Position numbers and translations under genes: made by a program. 64,000 bases of DNA from Pseudomonadota bacterium (GTDB lineage: Bacteria > Pseudomonadota > Gammaproteobacteria > SURF-13), in assembly GCA_040756035.1 (NCBI GenBank), contig JBFLZV010000005.1, positions 147-64,146 on the forward strand, in the 5' to 3' direction. Numbering within the stretch: the first letter of the stretch is position 1; each line of letters opens with the position of its first letter. Below the pieces are notes generated by a model. That model was not told the origin of the DNA and ran no database searches. It saw only the letters and a program-made list of their open reading frames with translations. Of the stretch, positions 38,888 through 64,000 are shown one piece after another.

Positions 38888-38959
38888 GGTCACAGACGTA
38901 CAAAACGCGTGAGCAGGAAGCTCATGCCTTATAGCCGTCGCTAAGGATCGGCGATAAAA

Positions 38960-40348: not shown

Positions 40349-40409
40349 TGGTAAAGAGGGTTGTGCGAGCATTCTAGAGGGAGAGGTGCATATCAAGGGA
40401 GTATGCAAA

Positions 40410-41048: not shown

Positions 41049-41127
41049 TGAGCCATTTTAACGTGATCTAGTCAAGGGCATATTCCCTTGGGTTTGGTGG
41101 AAGACAAGGTTATACGGAGCGGTATTT

Positions 41128-41967: not shown

Positions 41968-42194
41968 GTTAGTGCCGCCGGCCTATTTTCTTTCTCTCAC
42001 AAGGCGACACATTTTGTCACATAGTGACGCATAGCCATCCCTCCGCACGTGCGCGGGTTGCGCATAATTTCCAACGCCGCGTCGAAAATAAACATAATTT
42101 TTGTTTTCAAAAACCGCTAATACCGCAGCAGGACTAGCTCTGCGCGCAAATTTCATTTCACCCGCCGGTTCTGGGTGGGTCTCGCATCCCTTTT

Positions 42195-42210
42195 TGGCAC
42201 GCATCATGCT
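42195..42210 (+). promoter_or_regulatory. sigma-54 (RpoN) -24/-12 promoter TGGCACG-N4-ATGCT
   Basis: TGGCACGCATCATGC. GG and GC are spaced exactly as in the consensus TGGCACG-N4-TTGCW. It lies 54 nt upstream of the secreted-protein start; predicted TSS ~42221. Confidence 0.5.
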
Positions 42211-42263
42211 CTTATCCTCCGCGAGAAGCAGGCAGCTTTTGTCTTGCATATTCGGAGGAGATT

Positions 42264-43274
42264 GTGATGAAGAATGTTATTTCCCGGCTCGCTTCTATGC
42301 TGTTGGGTCTTGTCTTAATAATGGGGGTGGCGGCGCCGGCGCAGGCCGCGTTCCCAAACAAGTATCATCCGGGTCACTACATGTTGACCTATTTCGGCGC
42401 CACAGAGCTTAACGCCTTTAAGCCTATTATTAATAATCCGAATTTTGTGGGTGTGCAGAAGCGCTACAAATGGCGCACCCTGGAGCCCACGCGCGGCAAA
42501 TACGATTTTTCCATGATTATCCGGGATCTTAATTATCTGCGCAGCTTACCTATGCCTAAGCGGCTAATTATCCAAGTTACCGTTACCGGAGATGAAAAGG
42601 GGCTGCCGCACGCCCCCGATTATTTGAGAACGCCTGAATTTGACGGCGGCGTATACACGTCAACGTTCCCAGTGCGCTACGTTAGGACCAAACAGTGGAA
42701 TACGGCCGTGCAGGATAGGCTCATAGCCCTGTTCCGCGCCTTAGGGGCGCGTTTTGACAAAGAGCCTTACTTCGAGGGCGTAGTGTTGGATGAAACCGCT
42801 ACGGGTATTCGTCTCCATCAGTGGACGGCGGCTAACTATACGGCCGAGAAGGCATATAATGGCCACAAACGCATCATGGCCGGCTTGAAGGCGGCCTTTC
42901 CGAATACTATGTGCATTCAATTCATTAATTTCTTTTCCGGTGCAAACGCTAAGGATGGATTGAATAAAATCGCCGGACTGATTCAATATGCGCATCAGAT
43001 CGGCATGGGCATCGGCGGCCCGGACATCCATGTGGGCGGCACCGAGCCGAGTTACCCTTACTTCACTACTTATAACGGCAGTATGCCGTTGACCGCCGCC
43101 GTACAGTGGGAAGACTACGACTGGGTCAGCCCCACGGGTAGCATCGCCACGGTGCCGAAAATTTTCGACTTCGCACGCAATAAATTGCACCTGAATTATA
43201 TCTTCTGGCTGCAAAGAGAGCCCTACTTCTCAACGCAAGTGGTGCCGCTGGTGCGGCGCATGGGCGCTCCTTAA
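42264..43274 (+). CDS. secreted hypothetical protein (possible polysaccharide-active TIM-barrel enzyme)
   Basis: 336 aa. Signal peptide ending AAPAQAAF. No diagnostic motif recognised. GGAGG RBS. Driven by the sigma-54 promoter above. Confidence 0.5.
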   Translation: MMKNVISRLASMLLGLVLIMGVAAPAQAAFPNKYHPGHYMLTYFGATELNAFKPIINNPNFVGVQKRYKWRTLEPTRGKYDFSMIIRDLNYLRSLPMPKRLIIQVTVTGDEKGLPHAPDYLRTPEFDGGVYTSTFPVRYVRTKQWNTAVQDRLIALFRALGARFDKEPYFEGVVLDETATGIRLHQWTAANYTAEKAYNGHKRIMAGLKAAFPNTMCIQFINFFSGANAKDGLNKIAGLIQYAHQIGMGIGGPDIHVGGTEPSYPYFTTYNGSMPLTAAVQWEDYDWVSPTGSIATVPKIFDFARNKLHLNYIFWLQREPYFSTQVVPLVRRMGAP

Positions 43275-43304
43275 GCGTAGGAGCCAAGGTTGGCAAGGGG
43301 GGGG

Positions 43305-43345
43305 GGGGCTTTGTCCCCCCCTTTGTTTTTTTCGGCTATGTTTCC
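43305..43345. terminator. bidirectional terminator with G12/C8 homopolymer stem and T-run
   Basis: GGGGGGGGGGGGCTTTGTCCCCCCCCTTTGTTTTTTTCGG between convergent genes (42264-43274 + and 43336-45609 -). Confidence 0.5.
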
Positions 43346-45609: not shown

Positions 45610-45618
45610 TTTGGTTAG

Positions 45619-45764
45619 TTATTAACTCGGCGACAAAATATATCCCTATATTTTGTCGCCCTCGACCAGGCGGTACCTGCCCGGCCTGGTCTCGCGCGGC
45701 TTAAGGCCGCGTCAAGGCATCCGTGCCTTGCTCAACCCGGCAATAAATCCCGCCTGGTTAATAT
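45619..45764 (+). repeat. MITE-like structured repeat, family 2, copy 3
   Basis: TTATTAACTCGGCGACAAAATATATCCCTATATTTTGTCGCC, CCAGGCGGTACCTGCCCGGCCTGG, GCGGCTTAAGGCCGC, terminal CGCCTGGTTAATA. Sits between the GH gene start and the wzx stop. Confidence 0.6.
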
Positions 45765-45771
45765 TCCACGG

Positions 45772-47355
45772 TTACCATACGATCCAGTTACGGCCTATGA
45801 AGCGGTTTAGCAGCGCTCTCTCGGAAGGCAGGAAAGGTTTCCAGAGGTATCCGAAGAGTAAAAACAGCCCGACGGTGGCAAGTCCGGCCAGCAAGGAGCC
45901 TATAAGACCCGGAATTAATAACGTTATGGAGGCGCCCAGTATTCCGGATGCCAGGGCAAGCACCATGATGCGGACGATGCCTTGCCAGTGCGGATGATAA
46001 GGATGGTTTTTCGCGCGCAGCCGCTTTACGATGTATACGTTTTCAAACCATGCAATAAGCAATATGCCGGCTAACATTCCGGGCAGGCCGTACAGCAGCA
46101 TGGCGGCGATTTGCAGCATCCCCGCCAGCGAAGCCCACAGGTTGGCCACAAGCAGCAGCCAACTTTCCTCCACGGCGTTGAGTATGAGTTTCAAGACTAG
46201 CCCGTGACTGTAAAACATCAGGCTCACCATTAGTCCGGTAAGCAGCCACACGGTGTTCGTATATTTCCCCGCGGTAATGAAGTCGATAACGGGAGCGCCG
46301 CATAGGGCGAGCCAAACGGTGGCCGGCGCAAGCACAAAGAGGTTGATCTTTACTATGATAGAACCCATTTCGTTGAGGGTGGAAAACTCGCGCCGCTCGG
46401 CGTAGCGGGCCATGAACACGGGTTCGATAAGGCCCAGCATTAGAATGGCGGGCAGGTAGTTCCGCATCATTCCGGTAATGGCGAAAGCAAAACCCAGAGC
46501 CGCGGTTTGAATGCTCCCTAAATAGGCGGCGCTGATCAGTTTCATAGTGTTGGAGCTGACGATCAGGCCGATCAAATTTGGAAGATAATTGTGCCAGCCG
46601 AAGCGCCATAAGCGTGCCGGAGAAATATCAAATCTTTTTGCGGCGGTATCCGTGCTCTTAAATAAGCCGAGATGGGCGTGCAATATAACCAGCATATACA
46701 ATGCGGCCAAGCTGACCGCGATGGTTTGCACCCGCACCACTTGCATAAGCGACAGACCGCCCATCAAGGCGAGTATCAGCAGCAAGGCCGCCAATTTGGT
46801 GAGCCACTCCAGGGCCATGGCGCGCGTGGCGTTCCTTTGCAACAACAGGGCTTGCAAAGTACGGGATAGATGAACCGCTATGCACGCAAGGAAAATGTAC
46901 AGTGCGAAAGGCCATATCACGTTGCTGTGGTTGTCCAGTGACAGGAAACCGGAAATGGAATCCGAGAACAGCAGTATCGGAATAAGTGCGACCCCTATAA
47001 AAATCGCGCGCAGTCCAAGAAGTTTCCATGATAATCCGGCTAGCTGGGCTTCCGCTCTTTGCGTTCTAAGGGCGGGGAGAAATTTTGGGATAACGCGATC
47101 CAGGCCGCCGTCGCTGATGATTCCGAGCGTAACGAGCAGGCCGGTCAGGGCCGTGTAGGCTCCGTAGGTCTCCACCGGCAGAATACGAACCAGCAGAATG
47201 GCCACGGTGAACGACACAATGGCGGTCATGCCGCGTCCCAGAAGATAATGCCACATGCTGGCGCGAACCTTTCTGCCGCTGTAGTAGGATGTTTTTGACA
47301 TTGAAATTGCGTCGGCGGATTTTTCCATAACGAATAATGTGCTTCCTTTTGGCAT
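45772..47355 (-). CDS. wzx: Wzx-type polysaccharide flippase (MOP superfamily)
   Basis: 527 aa (start may be the internal MEKSADAISM at 47328), ~12-14 TM helices. Confidence 0.7.
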   Translation of the reverse strand: MPKGSTLFVMEKSADAISMSKTSYYSGRKVRASMWHYLLGRGMTAIVSFTVAILLVRILPVETYGAYTALTGLLVTLGIISDGGLDRVIPKFLPALRTQRAEAQLAGLSWKLLGLRAIFIGVALIPILLFSDSISGFLSLDNHSNVIWPFALYIFLACIAVHLSRTLQALLLQRNATRAMALEWLTKLAALLLILALMGGLSLMQVVRVQTIAVSLAALYMLVILHAHLGLFKSTDTAAKRFDISPARLWRFGWHNYLPNLIGLIVSSNTMKLISAAYLGSIQTAALGFAFAITGMMRNYLPAILMLGLIEPVFMARYAERREFSTLNEMGSIIVKINLFVLAPATVWLALCGAPVIDFITAGKYTNTVWLLTGLMVSLMFYSHGLVLKLILNAVEESWLLLVANLWASLAGMLQIAAMLLYGLPGMLAGILLIAWFENVYIVKRLRAKNHPYHPHWQGIVRIMVLALASGILGASITLLIPGLIGSLLAGLATVGLFLLFGYLWKPFLPSERALLNRFIGRNWIVW

Positions 47356-47423
47356 GGTCTTTGTTATGCGGCCGCGGAGTTGCCCAACAATGCTTGAACA
47401 ACCTCATGTGATTTCGCCGAATC

Positions 47424-48635
47424 CTATATTCTCGGATAAGCGTTAAACGCCCACTGAACGGCCTGATAAAATGTCGTGGCGGGCTCCAGGATTTCCTTGC
47501 CGGCCTGTTGGGCGCCTTGCCTCAAGCGCGTATAAAGCACGCGATCATGAACAAGCTCGTGAATTTTTTTTCTAAGATCGGGAACCGAGTCGGGGATGAA
47601 TAACAAGCCGTTAATGCGGTCTTTCACAAGATACGGAAACGGACCGAACGCGGGGGCTATAACCGGTATGCCCATGGCCAGGCCCTCCATGGCGGCCATG
47701 CAGCGGCCTTCCGGAAAGCAGCTTTTGGTGGGAGTGACCACAATATAACTGTTGCGGATAACGCCGGCCAGCTCGTCACGCCCCAGCGTTCCGCGGAGAA
47801 CGACTCGATTGCCCAAGCTCAGGATGGATATCCGGTCCTTCAGCCCGTTGAGATCGTATCCACCGCCAACGTAAACCAGCCTTATATCAGCGCATGACTC
47901 AAGCAGCTCACGGCAGGCTTCGAGCAGATCGAACACGCCCTTGGTATAATCTATTCTGCCGATGTAGGTAATGGACTTGTAATGATTATCACCGTGGGCC
48001 GGCGCGTTGTCGTTAGCCCCCGGCCGCTCCCATAGATCTTTGAGCCCGCAATCGAATTCCTTGATGCGATGCTCCGGAATGCCGATATCCAAAAGCTGCT
48101 GTCGCAGATAAGGCCCATGGCAGATGGCGGTATTCACCCTGCGCAATATGTATTTGTTGATTTTAGCGATCAGCCGTTTGCGCGGACCGTGGCCGCTGTA
48201 TTCCAGGCGATTATGCAGTGAAAAAACCAGCGGCACGGAAAACAGCTTCGAGTAGATGAACGCCGCCCACAAAGGGTAACCGAGGCTGCCGCACAAGGCT
48301 CTGGTCGGCTTAAAGCGGGCAAGATGCAAAAGTATCCCGCCGAATGACAGCGTGCGCGCTACGGCCGCACCCATCGCTCCCAGCGCGGGAATGCTCATGC
48401 GCATAACGTATGCTCGTATATTCCTATGCCTGTAGTAGTCGCTGTATTTTTGGCTGGAGATGAGCAGTAGGGGACAATCTCCGACATGGGATAAAAAATC
48501 GGCAATGAAAGCATTGGGGCCACCGCTCGGAATGGCCGCCGGGTTTTTTATGAGCGATTTAAGCTGGAGAATTACATCGCCGTTTTTGATATATGCGTAC
48601 CGATGTTTAATTTCCATGCGCCTATCCTTGGACAT
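47424..48635 (-). CDS. GT4-family glycosyltransferase
   Basis: 403 aa (start may be MEIKHRY at 48617, avoiding overlap). C-terminal E-x7-E motif EGRCMAAMEGLAMGIPVIA. Confidence 0.8.
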   Translation of the reverse strand: MSKDRRMEIKHRYAYIKNGDVILQLKSLIKNPAAIPSGGPNAFIADFLSHVGDCPLLLISSQKYSDYYRHRNIRAYVMRMSIPALGAMGAAVARTLSFGGILLHLARFKPTRALCGSLGYPLWAAFIYSKLFSVPLVFSLHNRLEYSGHGPRKRLIAKINKYILRRVNTAICHGPYLRQQLLDIGIPEHRIKEFDCGLKDLWERPGANDNAPAHGDNHYKSITYIGRIDYTKGVFDLLEACRELLESCADIRLVYVGGGYDLNGLKDRISILSLGNRVVLRGTLGRDELAGVIRNSYIVVTPTKSCFPEGRCMAAMEGLAMGIPVIAPAFGPFPYLVKDRINGLLFIPDSVPDLRKKIHELVHDRVLYTRLRQGAQQAGKEILEPATTFYQAVQWAFNAYPRI

Positions 48636-49542
48636 TCTTTTGCACGGCTTGGAGATGGCTTGGACTTGTCAAGTAGCCGTAACGAATAAGCATATCTTTA
48701 AGGCTGGATTCGATCTCCGCCAGTTGCGTAGGCGCTAAATCCCGCTCATAAGCGTTTTTCCTGTCGCTGACCAGTGCTAATTTTTCAAAATGCTTGTTGA
48801 AGCGGCTGCTCCAAGGCAGGCCGCAGAACTGCATGGCGGCTCTTAGCGTGCTGTGTGGATTTTCTAAAAAGTCCTCGTAGCGCATCAAGAAATACTTATC
48901 TTTTCCCAACGGCCGGCCGGAGCGCTCGTACGAGTCTATGAGCAGTTTCCAATTAATGGCGGCCAGGCGCGGAAAAGACTGGGCGCCGGCATTCCATTCG
49001 TCCAGGTAATGTTGAGGGAGCGCACCCCACAGCCAATTTTCCGGGCCGCGATAGCCGTCCCACCATGGCATCTGTAGCCAGGAATTCGCCACGGCGCGAC
49101 CATCCCGAATGACGTGAATGAATTTCGCCTCGGGAAATATTTTCGAAAAAAAGCCTAGGCGCGGCCAGCCGGTATATTTATGTATGAAAAATTCCTTACC
49201 CTGACTGACATAGCGCTCGTTGAAGAAGTTTTGAAACTTGCCTTGCAGCCACGGCGTCACGTCATCGGCTTCCAAGTCGCGGCAGGGGCTTGCATAGATC
49301 GTGGATACGTTTCGTGAAATCAGTCTGTAGGCTTCCGAAGGCGCAAAGCGTATGCGTCCCTTGGCCGTCCAGCGAGACGGTAAATTTCTAAATAGAGGGT
49401 TATTCCATTTTCCCGATAAGTTCAGGAGCGGCAGATTATCTTCGACGTTCGATATAAATCCGACGTCTTCGTGCCTGGCCAGCACCTCGTGGATCAGCGA
49501 GGAGCCGCAGCGGCCCGTCCCCACGATAAACACCAGATTCAT
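48622..49542 (-). CDS. sulfotransferase-family protein (PAPS-dependent)
   Basis: Trimmed to MNLVFIVGTGRCGSS start (ATGA overlap with the upstream GT2 stop). 5'-PSB-like P-loop GTGRCGSS, 3'-PB-like RDGRAVANS. Confidence 0.7.
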   Translation of the reverse strand: MNLVFIVGTGRCGSSLIHEVLARHEDVGFISNVEDNLPLLNLSGKWNNPLFRNLPSRWTAKGRIRFAPSEAYRLISRNVSTIYASPCRDLEADDVTPWLQGKFQNFFNERYVSQGKEFFIHKYTGWPRLGFFSKIFPEAKFIHVIRDGRAVANSWLQMPWWDGYRGPENWLWGALPQHYLDEWNAGAQSFPRLAAINWKLLIDSYERSGRPLGKDKYFLMRYEDFLENPHSTLRAAMQFCGLPWSSRFNKHFEKLALVSDRKNAYERDLAPTQLAEIESSLKDMLIRYGYLTSPSHLQAVQKNVQG

Positions 49543-50603
49543 GCGTCGGACTCCGCTCGTGTACCGGGACTGCGTATGGCCGCGGGAGAGAGTAAAATTT
49601 TGTGGCTGATAGCTTCTTCCGGGCCGCGTTGTTTGCGTATGAATCCGAGCAGGGTGGCCAGGCCGAATACATGCCATGCGGCAATGGCGTATATGCCGCA
49701 TTTAATGCCCTTCTTCAAGACCGCGAATAATGCGGCGAGCAGAGCGGCCGCGAGCAGAAGGTAAGTAACCGGCGCAGGCAGAAAAGCAACGGATAGCCCC
49801 AACGACAACCAGAAAAATACAACCGCCAGGAAGACCTTGAATTCCCGGGCTGCCCTGTAGAAGTAGGGCTTGCCTAGGGCCGAGCGCAGCAGCTCGCCCG
49901 GGCCCCGCGCGTAGCGTGTGCGGAAGCGCCGTATAAGCAGTTTGTATTCCGGCAGGGTATGGCCATAGTGCAGCACGGACACGCTGGGGATGCGTACTAA
50001 AAGCCAATTTTTGGCGCGTAGCCGCAGCGCAAGCTCCAGTTCTTCAAACGAGTGTAAGTTTCTATTGGAAAAGTAACCGACCGACACCAGCGCATCGCGC
50101 CGGTAAAGTCCGCCCATATTCAGGCGATCCACAATCCCAGGCCTCATATGTGATGGGGGATTGTATTTTCTGGCCAAGAATATCAGGTTGGCGGCGTTTA
50201 CTTCCTCCACCATGCCGCCGACGCCGGCGACGTTGGCGTGGTTTTCCAGGTAGTGCAGGGCCTTGCGTATAAAGTCCGCGCGTAATTCCATATCGCCGTC
50301 CATGAGATAGATGTATTCGCCGCGGCAAATTTGAAAGCCGAGTTGCGGAGCGATGCCGCAACTGCGCTCCCCGGCGTCGAACAGCTGCACGACGGTAACG
50401 GGAAAGCCTAACGCGATCTGCGCCGTCTTGTCGGTGGACAGGCAATCCACGACAATGACTTCGGCATCCCATCCCGCTACGGCGGACAACGCGGAGCCGA
50501 CGGCGTTCGCGATGTTATTTTCCTCGTTGAACGCCTTGATAATGATGCTGACAAGGCAGTCGTGGGCGCCGCGCCGAGTGTTGGGATTTATTAAAAGCTT
50601 CAT
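49539..50603 (-). CDS. GT2-family glycosyltransferase with C-terminal TM helices
   Basis: 354 aa. VSIIIKAFNEENNI N-terminal GT-A motif, DGD (LMDGDMEL) DxD motif, C-terminal hydrophobic segment. Confidence 0.75.
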   Translation of the reverse strand: MKLLINPNTRRGAHDCLVSIIIKAFNEENNIANAVGSALSAVAGWDAEVIVVDCLSTDKTAQIALGFPVTVVQLFDAGERSCGIAPQLGFQICRGEYIYLMDGDMELRADFIRKALHYLENHANVAGVGGMVEEVNAANLIFLARKYNPPSHMRPGIVDRLNMGGLYRRDALVSVGYFSNRNLHSFEELELALRLRAKNWLLVRIPSVSVLHYGHTLPEYKLLIRRFRTRYARGPGELLRSALGKPYFYRAAREFKVFLAVVFFWLSLGLSVAFLPAPVTYLLLAAALLAALFAVLKKGIKCGIYAIAAWHVFGLATLLGFIRKQRGPEEAISHKILLSPAAIRSPGTRAESDA

Positions 50604-50627
50604 GGCATCCTTGCGCAGATGTGGTGT

Positions 50628-52199
50628 TTAATTTCGATACAAAGCGTTTTTCTTATGGGCTTGTTTCTCCAGCCAGGCCAGCAATCCGAACGCCGTCATG
50701 AATATGAACATCGCCGGTGGCGCGTACGGTATGTCAGGGCGGTAGAATAGCGAAACGACAAACAGCGGTATAATTGCATGCAGTCCTCGAGCGAGGGATT
50801 TCTGCCACGGATTTAGATTATCGGAACGTGACAGCCTGCGCGCGGATCGATATCCACATATAATCAGCAGCAAGAAGGCGCAAAGGCCGAGGATTCCGGT
50901 TTCCCATAGAATAACGGCAGCGCCGCTGCCGTCTATGCGCAGCGGAACATAGCGCGCCGCAACGTTTCCGATTCCCAGCCCCTGCGTGCGCGAGGCGCCG
51001 AGTCCATGCCCGATTAACAGGCGGGCGTCTTTGTTGGTCTTGTGTTGTCCCCACCAGAATTCCAGAACTTCGCGGCGCGTCATAAGCCCCAGCTCGCGGT
51101 GCTCGACGCCGGCGCGTTTGTTGAAGCTGTAGCTCGACAGGTGTTTTATGTTGTCTTCGAGACTGCGCCCGGTGGCGGACCAGTGGAACGCCTGATAGGC
51201 GAGCAATACCACGCTCAGGGACAACACTACCAACAGGCTGCCCACGATGAATGAACCGGGCCGCTGATACAGATTGTCTTTGTACAAGATCAATAGGGCC
51301 AGCGGCAGGTAAATAAAAATAACTTTAACCTCCATGAGCAATAACGGGCTTCCGAGCAAGAATATCGCCAAACCGAGTTTACGCTTTGCGATTACGCCGT
51401 GCTTATAAAGGCTCAGCATCACAATAATCAGGATGACTAAATACAGCGCCAAGACGGCGGTAAGTCCGCCGGCCTCCATGCTGCCGCCGAACGTTCCGAC
51501 TACGCTGTCGGATGCCTCGACTGTGCCGAGTCCCATTTCCAGACGCGACGATCTTACGAACAGGTATTGATACAGCACCGGAATAAACTGCGCCAGTCCT
51601 ATAAGCGCAAAACCCAGCAGCCAACGCCTTACGGTGTCTTTATCGAGCGGCACAAGGGCGAGGGCGGCCCACACGCCGCCGAAAAGCAGGATGCTCTTCA
51701 TCGAGAGAATGATCTGCCACGTTGGAGGCCGGTTGATCAAGGTGGATAGCAGGGCGATTGCCAGCAACAGCCACGCGCTGGTTGCCGTTGAGGAAAGGCC
51801 CGTTCTGGCCGGGGCTTGGGAAAGGCGCGAGGTCACGGCCGGTACGAACAGCATGGCCGCCAAGCCGTAGGTAATCCACCATGCCTGGTGCAGGGTGGGT
51901 ATGAAATATTGCACCGTACCGGCCAGCACTAGGGTGCCGATCAGCGTCAGCCAGAGCAGCGTGACCGGCTGCGTGGATAGGAGTAATCCGGTTAGCGCGC
52001 CGGCGAATAATATTGTGTAGAGCGGTTGCCCGCTCGCGGCGAGGAGACCCATCATGGCGGCGCTGAATAGCGCCAACATATAAGGTCCGACATTCCACAA
52101 AATATCAGTGCGATTATTCACAGGGCGGCCTGATTCGGTAGACCATGCTTTGAGTTGATTACGAATTTGTATTTGACGGCCCGTTCCCAAATCGGCCAC
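50628..52199 (-). CDS. Wzy/O-antigen-ligase-family membrane protein (exosortase-system-associated)
   Basis: 523 aa, >10 TM helices with a large periplasmic loop. N-terminus overlaps the sulfotransferase gene by 82 nt, so the true start may be an internal Met (e.g. MLALFSAAMMG, ~52079). Confidence 0.6.
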   Translation of the reverse strand: MADLGTGRQIQIRNQLKAWSTESGRPVNNRTDILWNVGPYMLALFSAAMMGLLAASGQPLYTILFAGALTGLLLSTQPVTLLWLTLIGTLVLAGTVQYFIPTLHQAWWITYGLAAMLFVPAVTSRLSQAPARTGLSSTATSAWLLLAIALLSTLINRPPTWQIILSMKSILLFGGVWAALALVPLDKDTVRRWLLGFALIGLAQFIPVLYQYLFVRSSRLEMGLGTVEASDSVVGTFGGSMEAGGLTAVLALYLVILIIVMLSLYKHGVIAKRKLGLAIFLLGSPLLLMEVKVIFIYLPLALLILYKDNLYQRPGSFIVGSLLVVLSLSVVLLAYQAFHWSATGRSLEDNIKHLSSYSFNKRAGVEHRELGLMTRREVLEFWWGQHKTNKDARLLIGHGLGASRTQGLGIGNVAARYVPLRIDGSGAAVILWETGILGLCAFLLLIICGYRSARRLSRSDNLNPWQKSLARGLHAIIPLFVVSLFYRPDIPYAPPAMFIFMTAFGLLAWLEKQAHKKNALYRN

Positions 52200-53026
52200 G
52201 GCAGGGTGTCTCTGCCCAGCAAGTCCGCCAGATCCAAGACTTCACCGGTCAGCTCGCGTTCAAGATAACGCCTGGTTTCCGGTAGCATAGGCGGCGCAAG
52301 GCTGCGCAGCGAAACAGTGTTGGCGCGAAGTATGCCGGCAATCAATCGACTATGCTTCAGGCGCGCGACCGCTCCATGAAAGCCGGCATTGCGTCCCCAT
52401 CGAGCGGTTTCTTTAAATAACATGTTCAGGGATTGTAGGCGCGGCTTGCGGCTTTCATTGGCGCGCTTCTCGGCGAAGCTGGACGTGTGGCGGGCGTCTA
52501 TTTCGAGGAACTGATAAAGCCGCCGCGCCTGTTCATCGGCGGCAAGTTCGATTTCTTCCTGAAACATTACTAGAATCTGATCGCGCCGGAAACGCGCCAG
52601 CCAGCGCTTGAGGTGTGTGGCGTAGCGTGATTGTTCAAGGTACATGGGATTATTGGCGAGGCCGGCCTCGAAGCTCAGGTTGTCCCCTCGGTGGTGGCCC
52701 GCGCGAATCTCGTGGAGATGATTGGAATAAGCCCTCTCCAGGGGATCGCGCAACGCTACGATGATTTTAAAATGCGGGTTGTACTGCCATGCACGCAGCG
52801 GCGCTTCGCTGTCGTAAAAGTACGAAGGTGAGATTTCTCCGGCCGCGATGCAGCCGCCAAGGTCGAAGTGCCGCTCATACCATTGAAAGCCGCGATCGTA
52901 GTAGTGGGAGAAAAAATCGAGTTCCTTGGGCGTGCTGACGCAAACCTGCGGGTGATCCTGCAGGATGCGGTGTATCCACGTGGAGGCGCACTTCTGCGCC
53001 CCGATGCCGAGGTACGTGGGCTTCAT
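52118..53026 (-). CDS. sulfotransferase (PAPS-dependent)
   Basis: 302 aa. 5'-PSB motif GIGAQKCASTW (K-x-x-T-W type), 3'-PB motif VALRDPLERAYS. Confidence 0.75.
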   Translation of the reverse strand: MKPTYLGIGAQKCASTWIHRILQDHPQVCVSTPKELDFFSHYYDRGFQWYERHFDLGGCIAAGEISPSYFYDSEAPLRAWQYNPHFKIIVALRDPLERAYSNHLHEIRAGHHRGDNLSFEAGLANNPMYLEQSRYATHLKRWLARFRRDQILVMFQEEIELAADEQARRLYQFLEIDARHTSSFAEKRANESRKPRLQSLNMLFKETARWGRNAGFHGAVARLKHSRLIAGILRANTVSLRSLAPPMLPETRRYLERELTGEVLDLADLLGRDTLPWPIWERAVKYKFVINSKHGLPNQAAL

Positions 53027-53709
53027 GCCTTGTGGACTCCCAGCAGTCGCGCAAGGGCCGGCTCACTCAGCGCGGACAGCAGCGCGTCGAGAAACTCCTG
53101 TTGCAGCCGGTAGGCCGCGTCGGCGTCGTTGCCGATGCTGGATACGCGCATCAGCAGGCCGTCCGGAATGCGTCCGCTCAAGCTGTAACGCATTTGCGCG
53201 AGTTTCTGTTGCAGGCCGCTGATCACCACTCGGTCGCCGGTGGTGATCCAGTACGTGATCGGTTCGACGCGCTCGCCGCGCACGGCGATCAACCGGCGCG
53301 CCGGAACTTGGCGCTGCGCGACGCGCAGTACCGTGTCATGGCGCCGGCTGATTTGAAAACCTTGCACGGCGTAACAGGTCTCCGGGCGGTGTACACGCAG
53401 CGTGTCGCTTTGGTCGCCGCCGTATGCGATGGACAGCATTACGCGCATGCCGCGGCCGTCGACATAGATGCGCGCCAGCGTCTGCTGATAATATTTTGCG
53501 ATCGTGGCCTGCGCGGCCGGGTTCACCATGAGCGGCCGGATGCTTTGGTCCTCGCGCCACGCGCCGAATTGCCTGGGGATTAAACTTTCCAAATCCCCGG
53601 GTGATCTTTGCGCCGCCAGCTTTTGCGTGGGCGTCAGCAGCAAGGCCAAGCCGGCCGCCGTAAACAGCGCCATGCTCACCCACCAGGATTTTACGCCGCA
53701 CGCATTCAC
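53023..53709 (-). CDS. epsI: EpsI-family exosortase-associated protein
   Basis: 228 aa. N-terminal signal/TM. Overlaps the exosortase stop by 4 nt, the usual exosortase-EpsI pairing. Confidence 0.7.
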   Translation of the reverse strand: MNACGVKSWWVSMALFTAAGLALLLTPTQKLAAQRSPGDLESLIPRQFGAWREDQSIRPLMVNPAAQATIAKYYQQTLARIYVDGRGMRVMLSIAYGGDQSDTLRVHRPETCYAVQGFQISRRHDTVLRVAQRQVPARRLIAVRGERVEPITYWITTGDRVVISGLQQKLAQMRYSLSGRIPDGLLMRVSSIGNDADAAYRLQQEFLDALLSALSEPALARLLGVHKA

Positions 53710-54581
53710 GCCGTGCGCCCCCTATTTACCGCGGAAAGCATCTGATCCATTAAAAAGAGGCAGGACAGAGTGATGCTAAATTCTACGAGACCCGCGAGGT
53801 CGTGTAGAAAACCCTGTCCCGCCTCATCGCCCAAATGGTAAGTGACGAGCACCAGCGCTATCACGCGCAAGGTGTTGGCCAGCAGCGCGATAGGCAGGAT
53901 ACCGATGAGTAAGGCGGCGTTGTGCCAAGTGCTCATCCGCCCGCGTAAATGGATGAACAGCGCGCCCAAGGCGCTCAGCGCAAACAACGAATAAATGCCG
54001 GAACAGGCATCGTCGACCAACAGCTGATAAGGGCCGATGCTCAGCGTTACGCCGCTGCGCGCCACGGGATAGCCGAACCAGTAAAGCAATTGTTCGGCCC
54101 ACAGAGAGATATAATGCTTAAGCGGGCCGGTGAAATAATCGATGATGAACGAGGGCAGGGGCACGAGGAACACTAAAAACATTACCGGAAACAAAAGTTC
54201 ACGCAGCGTCTTTGCGCCCTTGAGGAGCAGGATAACGCCGCTGAATACCGCGAGCTGCGATCCCACCTCCAGGAGCAGAATATCCTGGGAGCGCCCCAGC
54301 ACGTACATTAGCAATCCCGGCCCGAGCAACAGTGCGCCGAGCGTCGTGCGCTGCGCATCGTCCGCCAGGAGCAGCGCGCGGCGTTTTTTCCACAGCAGAC
54401 CCAGCGCCACGACGAGTATGATGAAGCCGTGCGCGTATTCCGGTTTTTGCCACGCCCCGGTGGCTAGCTTGAAATAAGTGGGCGCGTAAAGCGCCGCCAA
54501 GCCGAGCGCCACCGGCCACGCGGCGCCCGCGCCGATAAGGCGATGCGGCAAGGTCGGCGTAATGTTGATGGCGGCCGTCAT
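53706..54581 (-). CDS. xrtA: exosortase (XrtA-type)
   Basis: 291 aa, 8 TM helices. Catalytic Cys motif DDACSGIYSL and conserved Arg motif LANTLRVIAL. Confidence 0.8.
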   Translation of the reverse strand: MTAAINITPTLPHRLIGAGAAWPVALGLAALYAPTYFKLATGAWQKPEYAHGFIILVVALGLLWKKRRALLLADDAQRTTLGALLLGPGLLMYVLGRSQDILLLEVGSQLAVFSGVILLLKGAKTLRELLFPVMFLVFLVPLPSFIIDYFTGPLKHYISLWAEQLLYWFGYPVARSGVTLSIGPYQLLVDDACSGIYSLFALSALGALFIHLRGRMSTWHNAALLIGILPIALLANTLRVIALVLVTYHLGDEAGQGFLHDLAGLVEFSITLSCLFLMDQMLSAVNRGRTA

Positions 54582-58030: not shown

Positions 58031-58933
58031 TTACTTGTTGCCTTGCGGCGTGTCCACTACCAGCGTCTGCCGCGCTGCGGCAGGCTGGATGTGAGCAAAC
58101 TTTCCTACGTACTCAATCGACGCCATGCTGCGCAGGCGTTGCAGCTCACGGCGCACGGCCTCTTTGCGCTTCTCATTCAACAGAAAACCCTCTATCAGCG
58201 GAAACGCCTGCGCCTCGCTGAGAGGATGTTCAACGGCATCGACGAGTTCGAATACCGTGGAATCAGAATCTTCCTTGATAAACAAAATTTCTCCCTTTCC
58301 CATGGGATAAATTTTTTCTAATAGCTCGAAAGGCAGCATCCCCGCCGGCTTCATGACGCTCATTTCTTGAAACGGAATATTTTGCATGCGCAGCCAAGCG
58401 GTAATTTCATCGGCGGATTGCAGCGTGCGCACTTTTTCATCGAGCACGGGCGTCAACGCGGAGCTTTTCCACGTGATGCTGCGCAGCGTGTAAATCTTGC
58501 TTTTGGAAAATAGTTCGGGATGGCCGGTAAAGTAACTTTTTATTTCCTCGCGCGTGGGTTGCGGCACACTGGAGGTGCGCCTGCTCAAATACGCCTGCGC
58601 TAGGATTTGCTGTTCGGCCTTGGCAAAGCTGCGCAACACGTGCGGATCGCGATGTAAGTTCTCGGCGCGCGCCTTTTGCGCGGCGAGATTTTGATCGATC
58701 AGCGCATCGACTATTTGCAGAGAAGGTTTTTCCGAATTTGCGTCGATTTCCGCGCCCAGCAAGGCAATCTCATCATTGACTTGATGAATGGTGATTTCCT
58801 CGCCGTTCACCCTCACGACGCTTTGGCTTGCGACGCGCGGCTTTTCCGGGCGCTGTTCGCACCCGCCGGCGGTAAGCAGCAGTGCGGCGCATAACAGCGG
58901 CGCGCTGTATTTTGAATGTGTATTCCTAATCAT
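58031..58933 (-). CDS. epsD: EpsD-family lipoprotein, SurA/PPIase-like
   Basis: Start set at MIRNTHSKYSAPLLCAALLLTAGGC (lipobox LTAGGC). SurA-N-like chaperone domain. Confidence 0.6.
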   Translation of the reverse strand: MIRNTHSKYSAPLLCAALLLTAGGCEQRPEKPRVASQSVVRVNGEEITIHQVNDEIALLGAEIDANSEKPSLQIVDALIDQNLAAQKARAENLHRDPHVLRSFAKAEQQILAQAYLSRRTSSVPQPTREEIKSYFTGHPELFSKSKIYTLRSITWKSSALTPVLDEKVRTLQSADEITAWLRMQNIPFQEMSVMKPAGMLPFELLEKIYPMGKGEILFIKEDSDSTVFELVDAVEHPLSEAQAFPLIEGFLLNEKRKEAVRRELQRLRSMASIEYVGKFAHIQPAAARQTLVVDTPQGNK

Positions 58934-59094
58934 GTGCAACAGATCCCCGGTTGCAAACCCCAAAGAAATGTTCGACCCGGCGCGGCTAGTGTGCCCGCCG
59001 CCGGGTGAACAATGGACGTCCCTGTCCTGTTACCTCGCCGTTGTTCCCTAGGCGAGTGTCCACTCATGCTCTCCCTATGGCCGCGTGGCGATCG

Positions 59095-59577
59095 TTAAGC
59101 CAATCCGAGCTTGGGCGCCGACCTGGCGCTGCGACGTAACTGATAAGCGATCAAACCCAACCCCACCAACAATAACGCCCACTCATGGGGCTCGGGTACG
59201 GGGGGTACAGGAACCGTACCTTCAAAGATTAATGATTTTCCTAATACACCGGCAAAATGGTTGCCGCTTCCGTTGGCTCGGAATATAAAACTTCCGGGAC
59301 CTTCATGGCTTCTTATAATGTTGTAGCCGCCGTTACCGTTGCTTGTCCCGACCCAAAAACCTAAAAACGTACGCGCGGGATTATAATTAGTGACGGTTAG
59401 CTTAACTTCGTAAAGACCATCCAGGTTGCCCACGTTAAAGTCACTGTTAATGATCTTCCAGATGTTTAGCTTGACAGTGTTTGAGTGATGTGAATTGTTT
59501 GCAGCTTGCGCCGTGCCGGCGAGTGAAATGAACAAACTTACAATAACTGCTTTCCATAGCATGTTCGTTTTATTCAT
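59095..59577 (-). CDS. PEP-CTERM sorting-domain protein (exosortase substrate)
   Basis: 160 aa. Signal peptide. C-terminal VPEPHEWALLLVGLGLIAYQLRRSAR = PEP motif + TM helix + basic cluster. Confidence 0.8.
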   Translation of the reverse strand: MNKTNMLWKAVIVSLFISLAGTAQAANNSHHSNTVKLNIWKIINSDFNVGNLDGLYEVKLTVTNYNPARTFLGFWVGTSNGNGGYNIIRSHEGPGSFIFRANGSGNHFAGVLGKSLIFEGTVPVPPVPEPHEWALLLVGLGLIAYQLRRSARSAPKLGLA

Positions 59578-59619
59578 GACGCAATTCCCTTTGAATTAAT
59601 TATGAGTAATCAATAAAGA

Positions 59620-59634
59620 GCAACAGTTGTGCCA
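59620..59634 (-). promoter_or_regulatory. sigma-54 promoter TGGCAC-N5-TTGC driving the PEP-CTERM gene
   Basis: Plus strand GCAACAGTTGTGCCA; reverse complement TGGCACAACTGTTGC is a consensus -24/-12 element. Lies 43-57 nt upstream of the ATG (59577). Confidence 0.6.
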
Positions 59635-59761
59635 AGTTAACAAGGCAATGATTTTTTTATAGTTTTTATAAAATTTTTTGGATTTTAAAATAAATATGTA
59701 TCGTTATATTTACAAATAAAGCCGAGCTTGAGGAAAAAGCCCTACAGTAAAAACAAAATGA

Positions 59762-59781
59762 TTTACAAAGTGTTTTGTAAA
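59762..59781. promoter_or_regulatory. inverted repeat TTTACAAA-GTGT-TTTGTAAA: candidate enhancer (UAS) for a sigma-54 activator
   Basis: 8-bp arms, ~130-150 bp upstream of the -24 element, within a 280-bp AT-rich region. Confidence 0.35.
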
Positions 59782-59862
59782 GCTTTTGAAACAGCGATGA
59801 AAAGCGGGGGAGGGAGCCGGAAGTGAATAGAATACGCCCTTCCATGGCGTGAAGATTAAGCG

Positions 59863-60675
59863 CTACAGACGGATGATTTTTTTATCCGTCGCGGCAGAGC
59901 CTTGGGTTTTAATAGCAGCGCCCGGCCAGACACCCGACCAGAAAACGGAAATTTTGCCGTCCGGCCCGGGTGCGCCGAGCCAGGACAAGGCTTGTAGTAA
60001 CTCGGATTGCTTGGCGCCGGGTTGCGCGGAGAAGGAGCCGGTGAATTGATAATTTCCGTCCGGTTTCAGCGTGAGCACGCCTTGCGCCTTGAGCGGCCCG
60101 CCCTTATCGAGCAGGGTGCCTTTCACGCCCGTGTTGTCCGTGACGATGTTCATAGTAAACGCGCCGAGCGTAACCGGCTGCGGTGTTATAAACGCAGCAT
60201 TTTCCCAGTTGAGCGTGCCGCGCGCCGCGACCACGGCGCCGTCGATTTCTATTTCATCAAGCCGTGCGCGCAGCACGCCTTCCGGTTTGGCGGCAAGCGC
60301 CGTGAACAGCGGAGCGAGTTCGCCTACCGCGAATTGGCCTGCTACATCGGTGAAACGTGTGGCGCCGGTCAAGGTGCGCGTCACGTGGCCACGCGCGTCG
60401 GTGAGACCATCGCGTGCCGCCCAGCTTGCCTCGATACGGCCCAGCAGCAATGTCCAGGGATGTGCTTCCCAAGTCACTTTCCCAAGCCGATAATAACCAC
60501 TGAGTTCGGCGTCCTGCGCGCGTCCTGACCATACGCTGCCTTCCAAGCCGTAGAGGCGCAGCGGCGTCAAGCTGTTTTTAAACCAGTCGTAGGCGTGCGC
60601 CGCGGGCAGGGTGGCGATAAGGAAAATACCGTACGCGACAAGTGCAAGCAGCGCGTAGCGCAACCAGGATTTCAC
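59863..60675 (-). CDS. gspN: type II secretion system protein N
   Basis: 270 aa. N-terminal TM helix, periplasmic domain. Last gene of a gspJKLMN run. Confidence 0.7.
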   Translation of the reverse strand: MKSWLRYALLALVAYGIFLIATLPAAHAYDWFKNSLTPLRLYGLEGSVWSGRAQDAELSGYYRLGKVTWEAHPWTLLLGRIEASWAARDGLTDARGHVTRTLTGATRFTDVAGQFAVGELAPLFTALAAKPEGVLRARLDEIEIDGAVVAARGTLNWENAAFITPQPVTLGAFTMNIVTDNTGVKGTLLDKGGPLKAQGVLTLKPDGNYQFTGSFSAQPGAKQSELLQALSWLGAPGPDGKISVFWSGVWPGAAIKTQGSAATDKKIIRL

Positions 60676-61163
60676 GCGCCCGCTCCTTGCAGCGATACGC
60701 GCGCGTTGATCAAGCCGGGCGCGGCTTGCCGCTCCACTACGATGTTTTGCACGCGCACGCCGTTGTTGCGCTGCAAGTTATCCAGCCACAGTACCGTATC
60801 GTCGAAGCTGGCCTGTTCCAGCCATACGCGCACGGTGTTGCGCCCTTCCGGCTCGACGCGCTTCACGGCGCCGCCCAAGCGTCCGCTCTTGGCCGATTGA
60901 TCGACCACCGCGAGCAGCGATTGGCCGTCGCTGACTTGCGCGGCGCCGGGATGCGCGGCGCGCAACTGCGCGGCTTGTTGCGCGGCCTGTTGCATCCACG
61001 CAAGCAGTGCTTGATTTTCCTTCACGCTTTGGCGCAACTGCTGTGCGTGGCTGGTGACGGGTTGCCAGACGAGGAAATAAATCGACGCCAGCAACAGCAC
61101 CGCGGCGCCGATGAGTAGGGCGCGGCGGTCATTAGGGCGCAGTTGCATGAACCATTTCTTCAT
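60672..61163 (-). CDS. gspM: type II secretion system protein M
   Basis: 163 aa. Single TM helix (ALLIGAAVLLLASIYFLVW). 4-nt overlap with gspL. Confidence 0.75.
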   Translation of the reverse strand: MKKWFMQLRPNDRRALLIGAAVLLLASIYFLVWQPVTSHAQQLRQSVKENQALLAWMQQAAQQAAQLRAAHPGAAQVSDGQSLLAVVDQSAKSGRLGGAVKRVEPEGRNTVRVWLEQASFDDTVLWLDNLQRNNGVRVQNIVVERQAAPGLINARVSLQGAGA

Positions 61164-62383
61164 GATTTTTTCGCTTGTATTTGCAAGCGGCTTTGCACTT
61201 TGTCTTCCTGCGAGGTGGCGGATTGAATGTCCACGTTGAGTTGCGCGGCCAGGCGTTGCTTGAGCTGGTCCAGCGCCTGCAAGTCCTTGATCTCGAGATC
61301 GACGTTGAGCTGGCCGTCCTTGTAGCTCACGGTGCGCAAATCCAGATTAGGCGTATCTTTGAATGGTGCGCCGCTACGCGCCAGCAACTCCAAAAAGCCT
61401 TGGTCGCCTTGTCCGGCGCCGCGCAGCGCGTCCAACTGACGCTGCATTTGCACGCGCGGGTTCACCACCTTGCGTGATTCCGGGAAGGTTTGCAGATAGA
61501 CGCGCTGGATTTGCTGTTGCAACGCCTGATTTTCGCGGCTTAGGCGGTATATTTCATGTGCCGTCATGCCGCCTTGCAGAATCAGCCACGCTCCCAGCAG
61601 CGCCGCCGCCGCGCGCCACGGTCGCCACAGTTTGCCGAGTTGTTCGCGGCGGCTGTAGTCGCCTTGCATTAAATTAACGGCGTCTTGCTCGTCGAAGCCT
61701 CGCGCCAGCAGCAGCAACGGCTCCTCGGTGACGGCCTTGCCGATCACTTCCACGCCGAGTTCCCCGGAGAGACGCGGCGCATCGGAGCCGTAATGTAAAA
61801 TCTGAATACGCGCGGGCTTGGCGGATTCCGCCGCGCCGAGCAGGCTGGTCAGCATGAGTTCCAAGCTAATTAAATCCGCGGCCAGCCCGGATTGCGCGCC
61901 GTTGCGCACCAGGGCGCCGCGCTCGGGAAGAATGAGCACCGTCCACGCGTCCGGCGTGAGCGGTACGCCGAGCGTTTCCGGCGTCAGCACGTCGGGCTGG
62001 ATGCCGGCCTCGCGCAGCGCGCCCAGCCAGCGCTCCATGCGCGTGCGCGCCACCACGGCGGCGTTGATTTGCTTGTCTGCGTTGCGCCGGCCCACGGCGA
62101 AGTGCAGGTCTTCCACGTCGCAGGCGAGTTGTTCCTCCAGCACGAAGGGCAGCGCCTGGGCGATGCGCGCGCGATTTTGGCTGGGTATCGCGACGCGCGT
62201 GAGCAGCACGTCGCCGCCCGGCGCGAACACGATGACTCGGCAGCCGGCGGCAGAAGCCGCCGCGTCCGCGAGCGCGCCGTGCGCGACCGCGCCGAGCGGC
62301 TGGCCGGATGCGGAGTAGCGCACCCAGCTTGCGGGAGCATCGTCGGACGCGCCGAGACGGATGAAGAGTTTGTCACGCATCAA
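61160..62383 (-). CDS. gspL: type II secretion system protein L
   Basis: 407 aa. Cytoplasmic actin-like domain, TM helix (LGKLWRPWRAAAALLGAWLILQ), periplasmic domain. Confidence 0.8.
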   Translation of the reverse strand: MMRDKLFIRLGASDDAPASWVRYSASGQPLGAVAHGALADAAASAAGCRVIVFAPGGDVLLTRVAIPSQNRARIAQALPFVLEEQLACDVEDLHFAVGRRNADKQINAAVVARTRMERWLGALREAGIQPDVLTPETLGVPLTPDAWTVLILPERGALVRNGAQSGLAADLISLELMLTSLLGAAESAKPARIQILHYGSDAPRLSGELGVEVIGKAVTEEPLLLLARGFDEQDAVNLMQGDYSRREQLGKLWRPWRAAAALLGAWLILQGGMTAHEIYRLSRENQALQQQIQRVYLQTFPESRKVVNPRVQMQRQLDALRGAGQGDQGFLELLARSGAPFKDTPNLDLRTVSYKDGQLNVDLEIKDLQALDQLKQRLAAQLNVDIQSATSQEDKVQSRLQIQAKKS

Positions 62384-63327
62384 TAGCTACCTTGACCACG
62401 TTCGATGACCTTTACTTTACCTTCCAAACTGCGTTGCACCACGCTATATAACTGTACCTGGCCGCGCCCCGCCTGGCTACTGGACACGACCAGAAAATAA
62501 CGGCTCGATACCGCAAGCTTATCGACCGGCAATGCTCGTCCGGCCAGCGCCGGATGCGCGCGAAACTCGTCGACGTTGGCGTACGGTTTGACCTTGCGCG
62601 CGTTCAGCAGCGCATTGGCGTCCGAGGCGCTGACGCCGTCGGCCAGCGCCGCCAGCACCGGCGCGGGCGCGGTGTTGACGTTGATTTTTGTGGACTCCGG
62701 CAGGGTCGGCAGGGCCGTAACGAACGGCGCGAGAGCCTGATAAACCTGCGGCGTGTAGCCTTTCACGAGCAGCAATTCAGTTACGCTCACCAGCGGCCTG
62801 TTGGCCGCGCGATACGGCGGCGTGCGCTTTAGATATTCCGCGTCTTCCGCGCCGCTGGGGATGGTCAGCTCCACGTTTTTATCGATCCAATCCACCAGCG
62901 GCTGCGCCAACTCCGGCTCCAGTTTCAAGCTGCTCAGCAGGCGCTGAAAAATTTTTACGTCTTCCGCGCTGGGTTGATCGTCCGGACCTACCAAATTATT
63001 TAAATTAAAACGCCCTTGTAAGTCTTCGATTTGCCCGGCCACTTTGCCGCCTTCGACCTCGATCGGCGCCAGCGCGGTGGCCCAGTCCTCGTTCAAATTA
63101 TCGGCCTGCGCATTCTTGACCATGTCCTTGGCGAGCAGTCCGCGCGCCCAGTTCTCCACGCCCAGCGCGTACAAATACGTCTGACCGCTGTCGAAGATGT
63201 TGCCGGTGCGGCGAATGTCCAACTGCTGGCGCGAGGCCATGCCGACCGCCAGCACCGCGACGATGGCGGTGATGAGCAGCGCGGTGATCAGCGCCACGCC
63301 GCGTTGTTGCGAGCGCCGCGCGGTCAT
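62380..63327 (-). CDS. gspK: type II secretion system minor pseudopilin K
   Basis: Trimmed to MTARRSQQRGVALITALLITAIVAVLAVGMA (GspK-type N-terminus lacking the Glu5 pilin residue). The ORF-track 356-aa form is an Arg-rich upstream extension. Confidence 0.8.
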   Translation of the reverse strand: MTARRSQQRGVALITALLITAIVAVLAVGMASRQQLDIRRTGNIFDSGQTYLYALGVENWARGLLAKDMVKNAQADNLNEDWATALAPIEVEGGKVAGQIEDLQGRFNLNNLVGPDDQPSAEDVKIFQRLLSSLKLEPELAQPLVDWIDKNVELTIPSGAEDAEYLKRTPPYRAANRPLVSVTELLLVKGYTPQVYQALAPFVTALPTLPESTKINVNTAPAPVLAALADGVSASDANALLNARKVKPYANVDEFRAHPALAGRALPVDKLAVSSRYFLVVSSSQAGRGQVQLYSVVQRSLEGKVKVIERGQGSY

Positions 63328-64000
63328 GCGCCGTCCGCGACGCGGAACAGCCGCGTAATGCGCCCCCAGCCTTCCACGTCGATACTGAATTCGACGGCGC
63401 GCGGCAGCGGTTCCGTCACCGTATTGCTGGCGCGGTCGATGAGCGGCCACTGCCGCTGCGCGGCGAACTTGGCGTCGAAGAAACGCACCTCGACGGCGTT
63501 GACGTTTTCCAACAGCACGGCGTCTTGCGGCGCGCTGTTCGGCGCGCGGTCCAGCGCGACCCAGGTGCTGCGCAGCAGTTGTTGATCTTTTACCGCATAT
63601 GCCACGCGCTGCAAACCGCTGCGCGCCGCCAGCCCCGGATTGCGCCAGCCCGTGCGTGTGAACTCCAGCAGCGGCTCGCCTTGCTCCACGCCGCGCATGG
63701 CGGGTTGTTCGCTGTCGTAGTTATCGCGGATTTTGCGATTCACCGCCTGTTCGATGTCGCGCTCCATCAGCGTAAACGCCAGTTGCAGCGCGGCCAGTTG
63801 CGCGGCTTGCTGTTCGACGCGCGCGCGTGTATCGAGCGCGTTGCGCAGTCCGCCGTAGGCCATGGCGGCCAGCACGGCGAAGATGGCGACAGCCACCAGC
63901 AACTCCAGCAATGTAAAACCGCATGAGGAGTGAGGCGTGAGGTGTGAGGCGCGGCCTATGGCCGGTGAGGAGTGAGGAGTTAGGGGTGAGGGGTAAAACC
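63324..64000 (-). CDS. gspJ: type II secretion system minor pseudopilin J, 5' end unresolved (runs to window edge in frame)
   Basis: Prepilin N-methylation motif G-FTLLELLVAVAIFAVLAAMAYGG encoded at 63840-63920. No in-frame ATG before it within the window; the upstream in-frame sequence is encoded by GTGAGG heptamer arrays. Confidence 0.65.
   Translation of the reverse strand, partial: FYPSPLTPHSSPAIGRASHLTPHSSCGFTLLELLVAVAIFAVLAAMAYGGLRNALDTRARVEQQAAQLAALQLAFTLMERDIEQAVNRKIRDNYDSEQPAMRGVEQGEPLLEFTRTGWRNPGLAARSGLQRVAYAVKDQQLLRSTWVALDRAPNSAPQDAVLLENVNAVEVRFFDAKFAAQRQWPLIDRASNTVTEPLPRAVEFSIDVEGWGRITRLFRVADGA
63922..63998. repeat. two arrays of four GTGAGGN heptamers flanking a CGGCC-TAT-GGCCG hairpin
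   Basis: ATGAGGA GTGAGGC GTGAGGT GTGAGGC gcggcctatggccg GTGAGGA GTGAGGA GTTAGGG GTGAGGG, at the 5' end of gspJ. Confidence 0.5.

Follow-up and report, generated by a model that had tools for sequence, protein, structure and literature searches.

What controls the transcription of the PEP-CTERM gene that lies between a type II secretion operon and an exosortase locus in the 64,000-nt stretch of DNA analysed here (the window)? A preliminary description had assigned the gene to an XrtA system and had proposed a complete sigma-54/enhancer unit upstream of it, with a conspicuous 8-4-8 inverted repeat serving as the enhancer. The features of the region are listed in the table, together with the corresponding sequences of two related loci, L007 and L090.

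Features of the PEP-CTERM gene and its flanking DNA, with homologous sequences in L007 and L090
Feature	Position	Strand	Window	L007	L090	Remarks
PEP-CTERM gene, 160 aa	59095..59577	-				signal peptide; tail VPEPHEWALLLVGLGLIAYQLRR; RBS AAGGGA 59591-59586
Two-hairpin element followed by a U-rich stretch	59005..59056	-				between the PEP-CTERM stop and epsD; CUCGCC...GGCGAG, then GGAC...GUCC
Predicted sigma-54 -24/-12 promoter core	59634..59620	-	TGGCACAACTGTTGC	TGGCATGGCTCTTGC	TGGCATAACTCTTGC	GG 59633-59632, GC 59621-59620
AT-rich spacer, box B to promoter, 62 nt	59635..59696	-				
IHF-like sequence in spacer	59653..59641	-	AATCATTGCCTTG			
Box B, proximal candidate activator box	59697..59714	-	TGTAAATATAACGATACA	TGTAAAGCTAGCGATACA	TGTAAATTAATAGTTACA	TGT-N12-ACA, centre ~-97
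Box A, distal candidate activator box	59776..59793	-	TGTTTCAAAAGCTTTACA	TGTAACAAAAAATTTACA	TGTTGCAGAAACCTTACA	TGT-N12-ACA, centre ~-176
8-4-8 inverted repeat	59762-59781		TTTACAAAgtgtTTTGTAAA			arms TTTACAAA-N4-TTTGTAAA; exact, unique in window
Right arm of inverted repeat	59762-59769		TTTGTAAA	CTTTTACC	ACTCTCTC	
Terminator-like hairpin directly 3' of the gspN stop	59834..59850	-				from terminator scan; between type II secretion operon and PEP-CTERM gene

The product of the gene was identified as a PEP-CTERM protein by Pfam model PF07589, with a score of 23.1 bits against a cut-off of 20.7. The NCBIfam PEPxxWA-CTERM model scored 29.4 bits, under its cut-off of 35; the tail motif in the window is PEPHEWA (59131-59199). 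Only two homologues with the same N-terminal domain were found, namely P0002, which is 42% identical over its full length and is the sole full-length relative in the protein database, and a 176-aa protein encoded in L090. For a third database hit, P0003, the match was confined to the C-terminal tail.

The window corresponds to the reverse complement of ~186-250 kb of contig JBMOPP010000006.1, part of GCA_049322975.1, a MAG labelled Pseudomonadota. Upstream of the gene, on the same strand, is a type II secretion operon with gspK-L-M-N as its last genes. The operon is complete (gspC to gspN), 285 bp separate its end from the PEP-CTERM gene (59863-64000; L212 1739-13465), and the order gspM-gspN-PEP-epsD is common to the window and L007 (L007 370-1661). 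Downstream, the encoded proteins are, in order, EpsD (a peptidyl-prolyl isomerase), EpsE, EpsF, EpsG, XrtB and a B-type EpsI, after which come two sulfotransferases, glycosyltransferases and a flippase, and farther away a priming transferase, a PAPS synthase and EpsL. The exosortase (53706-54581) scored 303.2 bits against the XrtB model TIGR03113 (cut-off 275) and 152.1 bits against the XrtA model TIGR03109 (cut-off 208). The locus is consequently of the XrtB type and not the XrtA system originally proposed, and the genes neighbouring the exosortase encode the B-type EpsI, EpsD, EpsE, EpsF, EpsG and EpsL.

Within the XrtB locus (35774-53026) there are genes for two sulfotransferases (48622-49701, 52118-53026) and for a sulfate adenylyltransferase/APS kinase that is bifunctional (37217-38887), which suggests that the product is a sulfated exopolysaccharide. 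EpsL (35774-37048) and the priming glucose-phosphotransferase (38960-40348) are encoded on the opposite strand. The PEP-CTERM proteins adjoining epsD in XrtB loci carried a PEPxxW[AT] tail (window, L007, L090, L091, L013, L022, L028, L036, L058 and L060), and the other PEP-CTERM genes of those loci encoded PEPETYAM-type tails.

The -24/-12 element reported for the region was recovered by pattern scan. The exact pattern TGGCAC-N5-TTGC had a single occurrence in the 64-kb window, on the minus strand at 59620-59634, matching 10/10 core positions and with GG and GC exactly 10 nt apart. The core is intergenic and on the same strand as the PEP-CTERM gene. Its placement upstream of the gene was as described, although the distance from the C of the -12 GC to the ATG at 59577 was measured as 42 nt and not ~45 nt. 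From base composition, exact matches would be expected ~0.15 times per 64 kb, and 8e-5 times on the coding strand of the 285-bp intergenic region. Sites with one mismatch were not enriched (4 in the window versus 6.9 expected), so the case for the promoter rests on the exactness, position and conservation of this core. The predicted transcription start is at ~59608. A sigma-70 promoter had been named as the alternative, and no sigma-70-like match was found in the scan of 58800-59950, where 1.5 would be expected by chance.

A second sigma-54-like site, TGGCACGCATCATGC, was seen in another intergenic region of the window (42195-42209, +), 55 nt before a 336-aa ORF (42264-43274) with a hydrophobic N-terminus and no match to known families. 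A palindrome, GTCAC-ATA-GTGAC, is located at 42016-42028, ~175 nt upstream of that site.

The AT-rich tract noted previously corresponds to the intergenic region at 59578-59862, which is 285 bp long and 34% GC compared to 58.7% for the window, with a core of 27% GC. A small ORF within it (59666-59845) was dismissed, being AT-rich and overlapping the conserved boxes described below. Footprinting based on the PEP-CTERM protein was limited by its single full-length homologue, and EpsD was taken as the anchor instead. Loci were retrieved with a 7-sequence EpsD alignment, a 27-sequence alignment being too divergent. Two syntenic relatives were found in all. L007, the home of the 42%-identity homologue, has the order gspM-gspN-PEP-epsD-epsE-epsF-epsG-xrtB, and L090, a third lineage that is separate from the set of 80 loci considered further on, was reached via an EpsD homologue of 49% identity. 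The EpsD and PEP-CTERM proteins of the three lineages share just 40-49% identity.

When the three upstream regions were aligned, four conserved blocks emerged: box A, box B, the -24/-12 core and the ribosome-binding site. Unassigned intergenic columns were invariant at 38 of 189 positions (~20%), compared to 11 of 15 in the promoter core and 12 of 18 in box A, including every TGT and ACA position. The core in both L007 and L090 takes the form TGGCAT-N5-TTGC, 61 and 65 nt before the respective ATGs. All six boxes (A and B in each lineage) are 18-bp TGT-N12-ACA sequences; in the window, box A has TTTACA at its 3' end, and box B GATACA rather than TTTACA. The spacing was also maintained, with 62, 65 and 65 nt from the end of box B to the TGG of the core, and 79, 78 and 78 nt from the start of box A to that of box B, in the window, L007 and L090 respectively. 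The 79-bp offset in the window corresponds to ~7.5 helical turns. Together, these data support a -24/-12 sigma-54 promoter that is predicted to serve the PEP-CTERM gene, the transcription of which would then depend on RpoN. The promoter call made initially is upheld in that the element is conserved in two diverged syntenic loci and fits the layout of Haft et al. 2006.

Within the spacer, wwCAwT-N3-TTG immediately upstream of TTGGCA and a central TTTTWTAWA block were common to all three lineages. Between the strain variants L007 and L009, four SNPs were found, 4/4 of them in the spacer and none in the boxes or promoter. From its sequence, the spacer is presumed to be a bending region that would allow DNA looping, possibly with IHF bound. 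Two copies of a 9-mer, TTTGTAAAT, form a direct repeat on the minus strand (59708-59716 and 59761-59769), 53 nt or about five helical turns apart.

The two-hairpin element that follows the gene was also kept in L007 (2626-2670) and L090 (838-885). No compensatory changes were found in it across the window, L007 and L090, and Rfam gave no match in the region, this element included. A possible role for the element is that of a leaky terminator or attenuator, which would decide read-through into epsDEFG-xrtB and may hence set the ratio of substrate to machinery.

The reach of the arrangement was then assessed in EpsD-bearing loci and in metagenomic DNA. The composite of TGT-N12-ACA and sigma-54 core was present in 0/80 EpsD-bearing loci from reference genomes, indicating that XrtB loci do not generally possess it. 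Many of the 80 have a PEPxxW-type PEP-CTERM gene immediately upstream of epsD, and few of these genes have a sigma-54-like core (e.g. TGGCAGATTTCTTGC in L036, L058 and L060). In three gammaproteobacterial MAGs (L010 952-966, L011 3841-3855 and L012 1826-1840), TGGCAT-N5-TTGC was seen ~70-90 nt before epsD with no intervening PEP-CTERM gene, which hints that the eps operon itself can be sigma-54-driven in that clade.

For the metagenome scan, the pattern was TGTAAA-N7/8-TACA followed at 55-75 nt by TGGCAY-N5-TTGC, and the sample comprised at least 123 matches in at least 120 stretches. A match was scored positive when an ORF with a PEP-CTERM tail began at most 250 nt downstream, with random positions in the same DNA as the control. 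Such an ORF followed 13 of the 123 matches listed, compared to 59 of 3600 random positions (1.6%; odds ratio 7, p = 4e-7). At spacers of 60-65 nt, 10 of the 42 matches listed preceded a PEP-CTERM ORF (p = 3e-9), and at 66-75 nt, 2 of the 62 listed. Both box variants were represented before PEP-CTERM genes among the matches listed, N11 in 10/80 and N12 in 3/43 (L098, L109 and L188). This enrichment indicates that a box-B-like palindrome ~62 nt from a sigma-54 core is a real PEP-CTERM signature and that the 18-bp variant has precedent. In the metagenome examples listed, a second box was found 6-22 nt from the first. PspF, encoded beside the N12-box locus L098, was considered as a candidate activator and rejected as unrelated.

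The same scan also caught other apparent sigma-54 regulons, including Flp pilin and transporter genes with similar palindromes at 71-75 nt. Flp-type pilin genes were preceded by TGTAAAC-N4-GTTTACA located 73-75 nt before TGGCAC, and a repeated unit of TGTAAAGTTTCTTTACA, 74/75 nt and TGGCACGGCGATTGC was found before large proteins, at times twice per contig (loci L119, L152, L164 and L168; L092, L096, L114 and L148). As other regulons use similar palindromes, the palindrome type alone does not identify PrsR.

The arrangement was compared to three known systems. According to Haft et al. 2006 (PMC1569441), the majority of PEP-CTERM genes in proteobacteria form single-gene units, and the regions upstream of them are long. 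In their PEP-CTERM box, a 17-nt motif 1 with TTTACA at its 3' end, in some cases repeated, is separated by 62.8 +/- 10.6 nt (range 32-92) from a sigma-54 motif 2, which is 71 +/- 38 nt from the start codon with a minimum of 23 (PMC1569441). The box was found before 99 of 167 proteobacterial PEP-CTERM genes, and its distribution matches that of PrsK, PrsR and PrsT, to which it was assigned (PMC1569441). The gene in the window likewise has its own 285-bp upstream region and is followed by a terminator-like element; upstream it has a motif (box A) that ends in TTTACA and is repeated, a box B spacer to GG-N10-GC of 62 nt, and 42 nt between promoter and start codon. It differs in that the boxes are 18 bp (N12) instead of 17, motif 1 having been compared by its description; GATACA is the end of the proximal box; the second box, instead of being adjacent, is at a distance of 79 bp; and the gene sits in an XrtB locus beside a type II secretion operon.

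In Desulfovibrio vulgaris, the predicted sites of the PrsR orthologue DVUA0057 are 17-mers (N11) of the TGTCGG-N5-TTTACA type, e.g. TGTCGGAGAACTTTACA and TGTAAAAAAAGCTGACA (Rajeev 2011 PMC3333781; Kazakov 2015 PMC4641369). As in the window, sigma-54 promoters precede PEP-CTERM genes, there also exopolysaccharide genes (PMC3333781, PMC4641369), and TGT...ACA palindromes occur, often two per promoter, with halves TGTAAA/TTTACA and TGTCGG/CCGACA. Unlike in the window, the DVUA0057 sites are N11 17-mers with more variable distances and TGTCGG as the dominant half-site. Binding of DVUA0057 to upstream regions was measured by DAP-chip, whereas binding in the window is predicted from the DNA sequence. 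The third system, pepA of Aquincola tertiaricarbonis RN12, is a PEP-CTERM gene with RpoN-dependent transcription and a mapped start behind TGGCAC/CTGCTT (PMC9850573). It shares with the window gene the TGGCAC -24 element and an upstream enhancer-like sequence, noted by its authors, but its -12 region is CTGCTT, it is linked to prsK-prsR-prsT and floc formation, and the evidence for it is experimental (PMC9850573).

The activator itself was searched for nearby. The GAFTGA signature, by which sigma-54 activators are recognised, was found in none of the ORFs of the 64-kb window, and no sigma-54 activator (bEBP) family within 10 kb beyond either window end. Neither the window nor the 10 kb on each side of it encodes PrsK (TIGR02916), PrsR (TIGR02915) or PrsT (TIGR02917), in line with the earlier statement that prsK/prsR are not in the window. 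The RpoN-box pattern had no match in the 64-kb window.

The explanation that we favour, and consider probable, is an enhancer-dependent sigma-54 unit of the type known for proteobacterial PEP-CTERM genes, in which a PrsR-type activator is likely to act through boxes A and B. What was observed here is the set of motifs with their geometry and conservation, and the statistical association of the composite with PEP-CTERM genes; dependence on sigma-54, the activator's identity, a part played by IHF and read-through are inferred. In outline, sigma-54 RNA polymerase would bind at 59634..59620 as a closed complex that does not initiate unaided. Boxes B and A would be bound by dimers of an NtrC-family activator, for which the most likely candidate is a response regulator of the PrsR type whose gene is elsewhere in the genome, and bending of the AT-rich spacer with its IHF-like sequence would bring this activator into contact with the polymerase. 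ATP hydrolysis by the activator would open the promoter, with transcription starting near 59608. The transcript would yield a small protein that is secreted and bears a PEPxxWA-type sorting tail; its sorting enzyme is probably the XrtB/EpsI exosortase, whose gene is 4.5 kb downstream, and the weak hairpin element after the gene would probably let some transcripts continue into epsD-epsG-xrtB. The missing sigma-70-like match is compatible with a gene that stays silent until it is activated, and so is the hairpin after gspN.

Several observations count against this explanation. The boxes are 18 bp, in contrast to the 17-bp Desulfovibrio PrsR-type sites and Haft motif 1, with the GATACA end and 79-bp offset as further departures. 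The window contains no GAFTGA activator and its 10-kb flanks no activator family. Most PEP-CTERM genes beside epsD in the 80 other XrtB loci were without the composite, and TGT-N11/12-ACA palindromes serve other NtrC-family activators too.

An alternative reading retains the sigma-54 promoter and assigns the boxes to a different protein, a non-PrsR NtrC-family activator dedicated to the XrtB/sulfated-polysaccharide locus that would read 18-bp boxes 78-79 bp apart. The N12 spacing as against N11 at the Desulfovibrio PrsR-type sites, a box layout that departs from the adjacent tandem boxes before other PEP-CTERM genes, the XrtB rather than XrtA system and the similar palindromes in other activator regulons of the same scan all fit such a protein. 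We nevertheless regard it as unlikely. The TGTAAA/TTTACA half-sites and the 62-65-nt spacer are features of the PEP-CTERM box, N12 boxes precede PEP-CTERM genes elsewhere (L098, L109 and L188), and no candidate activator is encoded near the locus, the 10-kb flanks included. In addition, the genomes with two exosortases in Table 1 of Haft et al. carry a single PrsK/PrsR pair (PMC1569441). A broader form of the proposal, to which we give slightly less credence again, holds that a distinct non-PrsR activator serves XrtB-linked, type-II-secretion-adjacent sulfated-polysaccharide loci in general and that one promoter controls both the PEPxxWA substrate and, via the hairpin element, epsD-xrtB. If so, substrate and sorting machinery would be coupled by attenuation.

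The inverted repeat put forward in the preliminary description was confirmed as exact and unique. It has no second copy in the window, both its arms contain a TGTAAA/TTTACA half-site, and TTTGTAAAT of the palindrome recurs 53 nt downstream within box B. That the palindrome is itself the activator-bound enhancer site is, even so, very improbable. At 59776-59781 it overlaps box A, its left arm being the TTTACA half of that box. Its right arm, which coincides with the other TTTGTAAAT copy, was not kept in L007 or L090; with 2/8 columns invariant compared to 20% for unassigned columns, this arm is at background conservation and is lineage-specific. Known boxes read TGTAAA..TTTACA, and relative to them the half-sites here are everted (TTTACA..TGTAAA). 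Between the end of the palindrome and the -24 element there are 127 nt, which exceeds the published range of 32-92 nt. Among mononucleotide shuffles of the intergenic region, a perfect 8-bp inverted repeat arose in 6.4% with a 0-10-nt loop and in 0.8% with a 4-nt loop, so that the palindrome, taken alone, is only modestly unusual. The conserved units are boxes A and B, and box B, at the canonical 62 nt, had gone unmentioned.

Least probable of all is that the -24/-12 match is coincidental or inactive and the gene is served by an unrecognised sigma-70-type promoter or by read-through from gspN: weak sigma-70 promoters can hide in AT-rich DNA from a simple scan and one-mismatch sigma-54-like sites were not enriched, but the core and two boxes are kept at fixed spacing in three diverged lineages, a sigma-70 consensus match is missing, a hairpin follows gspN, and the gene class offers strong precedent in Haft 2006 and Aquincola pepA.

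Of the complete sigma-54/enhancer unit first proposed, the sigma-54 call and the regulatory class therefore stand, and the enhancer element and the exosortase type do not. When such regions are annotated, the activator site should be assigned to the conserved box at the canonical distance of ~62 nt rather than to the most striking palindrome. The arrangement was already described for PEP-CTERM genes in 2006; this is a clean new example with no new mechanism, and it opens no new question for specialists. With this example, the PEP-CTERM box model of 2006 comes to cover a PEPxxWA substrate embedded in an XrtB locus, and a box variant of 18 bp. A regulatory class is thereby assigned to an orphan secreted protein, and probably also to the sulfated-exopolysaccharide/XrtB locus, of an uncultured proteobacterium, in which expression would depend on an enhancer and be switched tightly by a two-component system.
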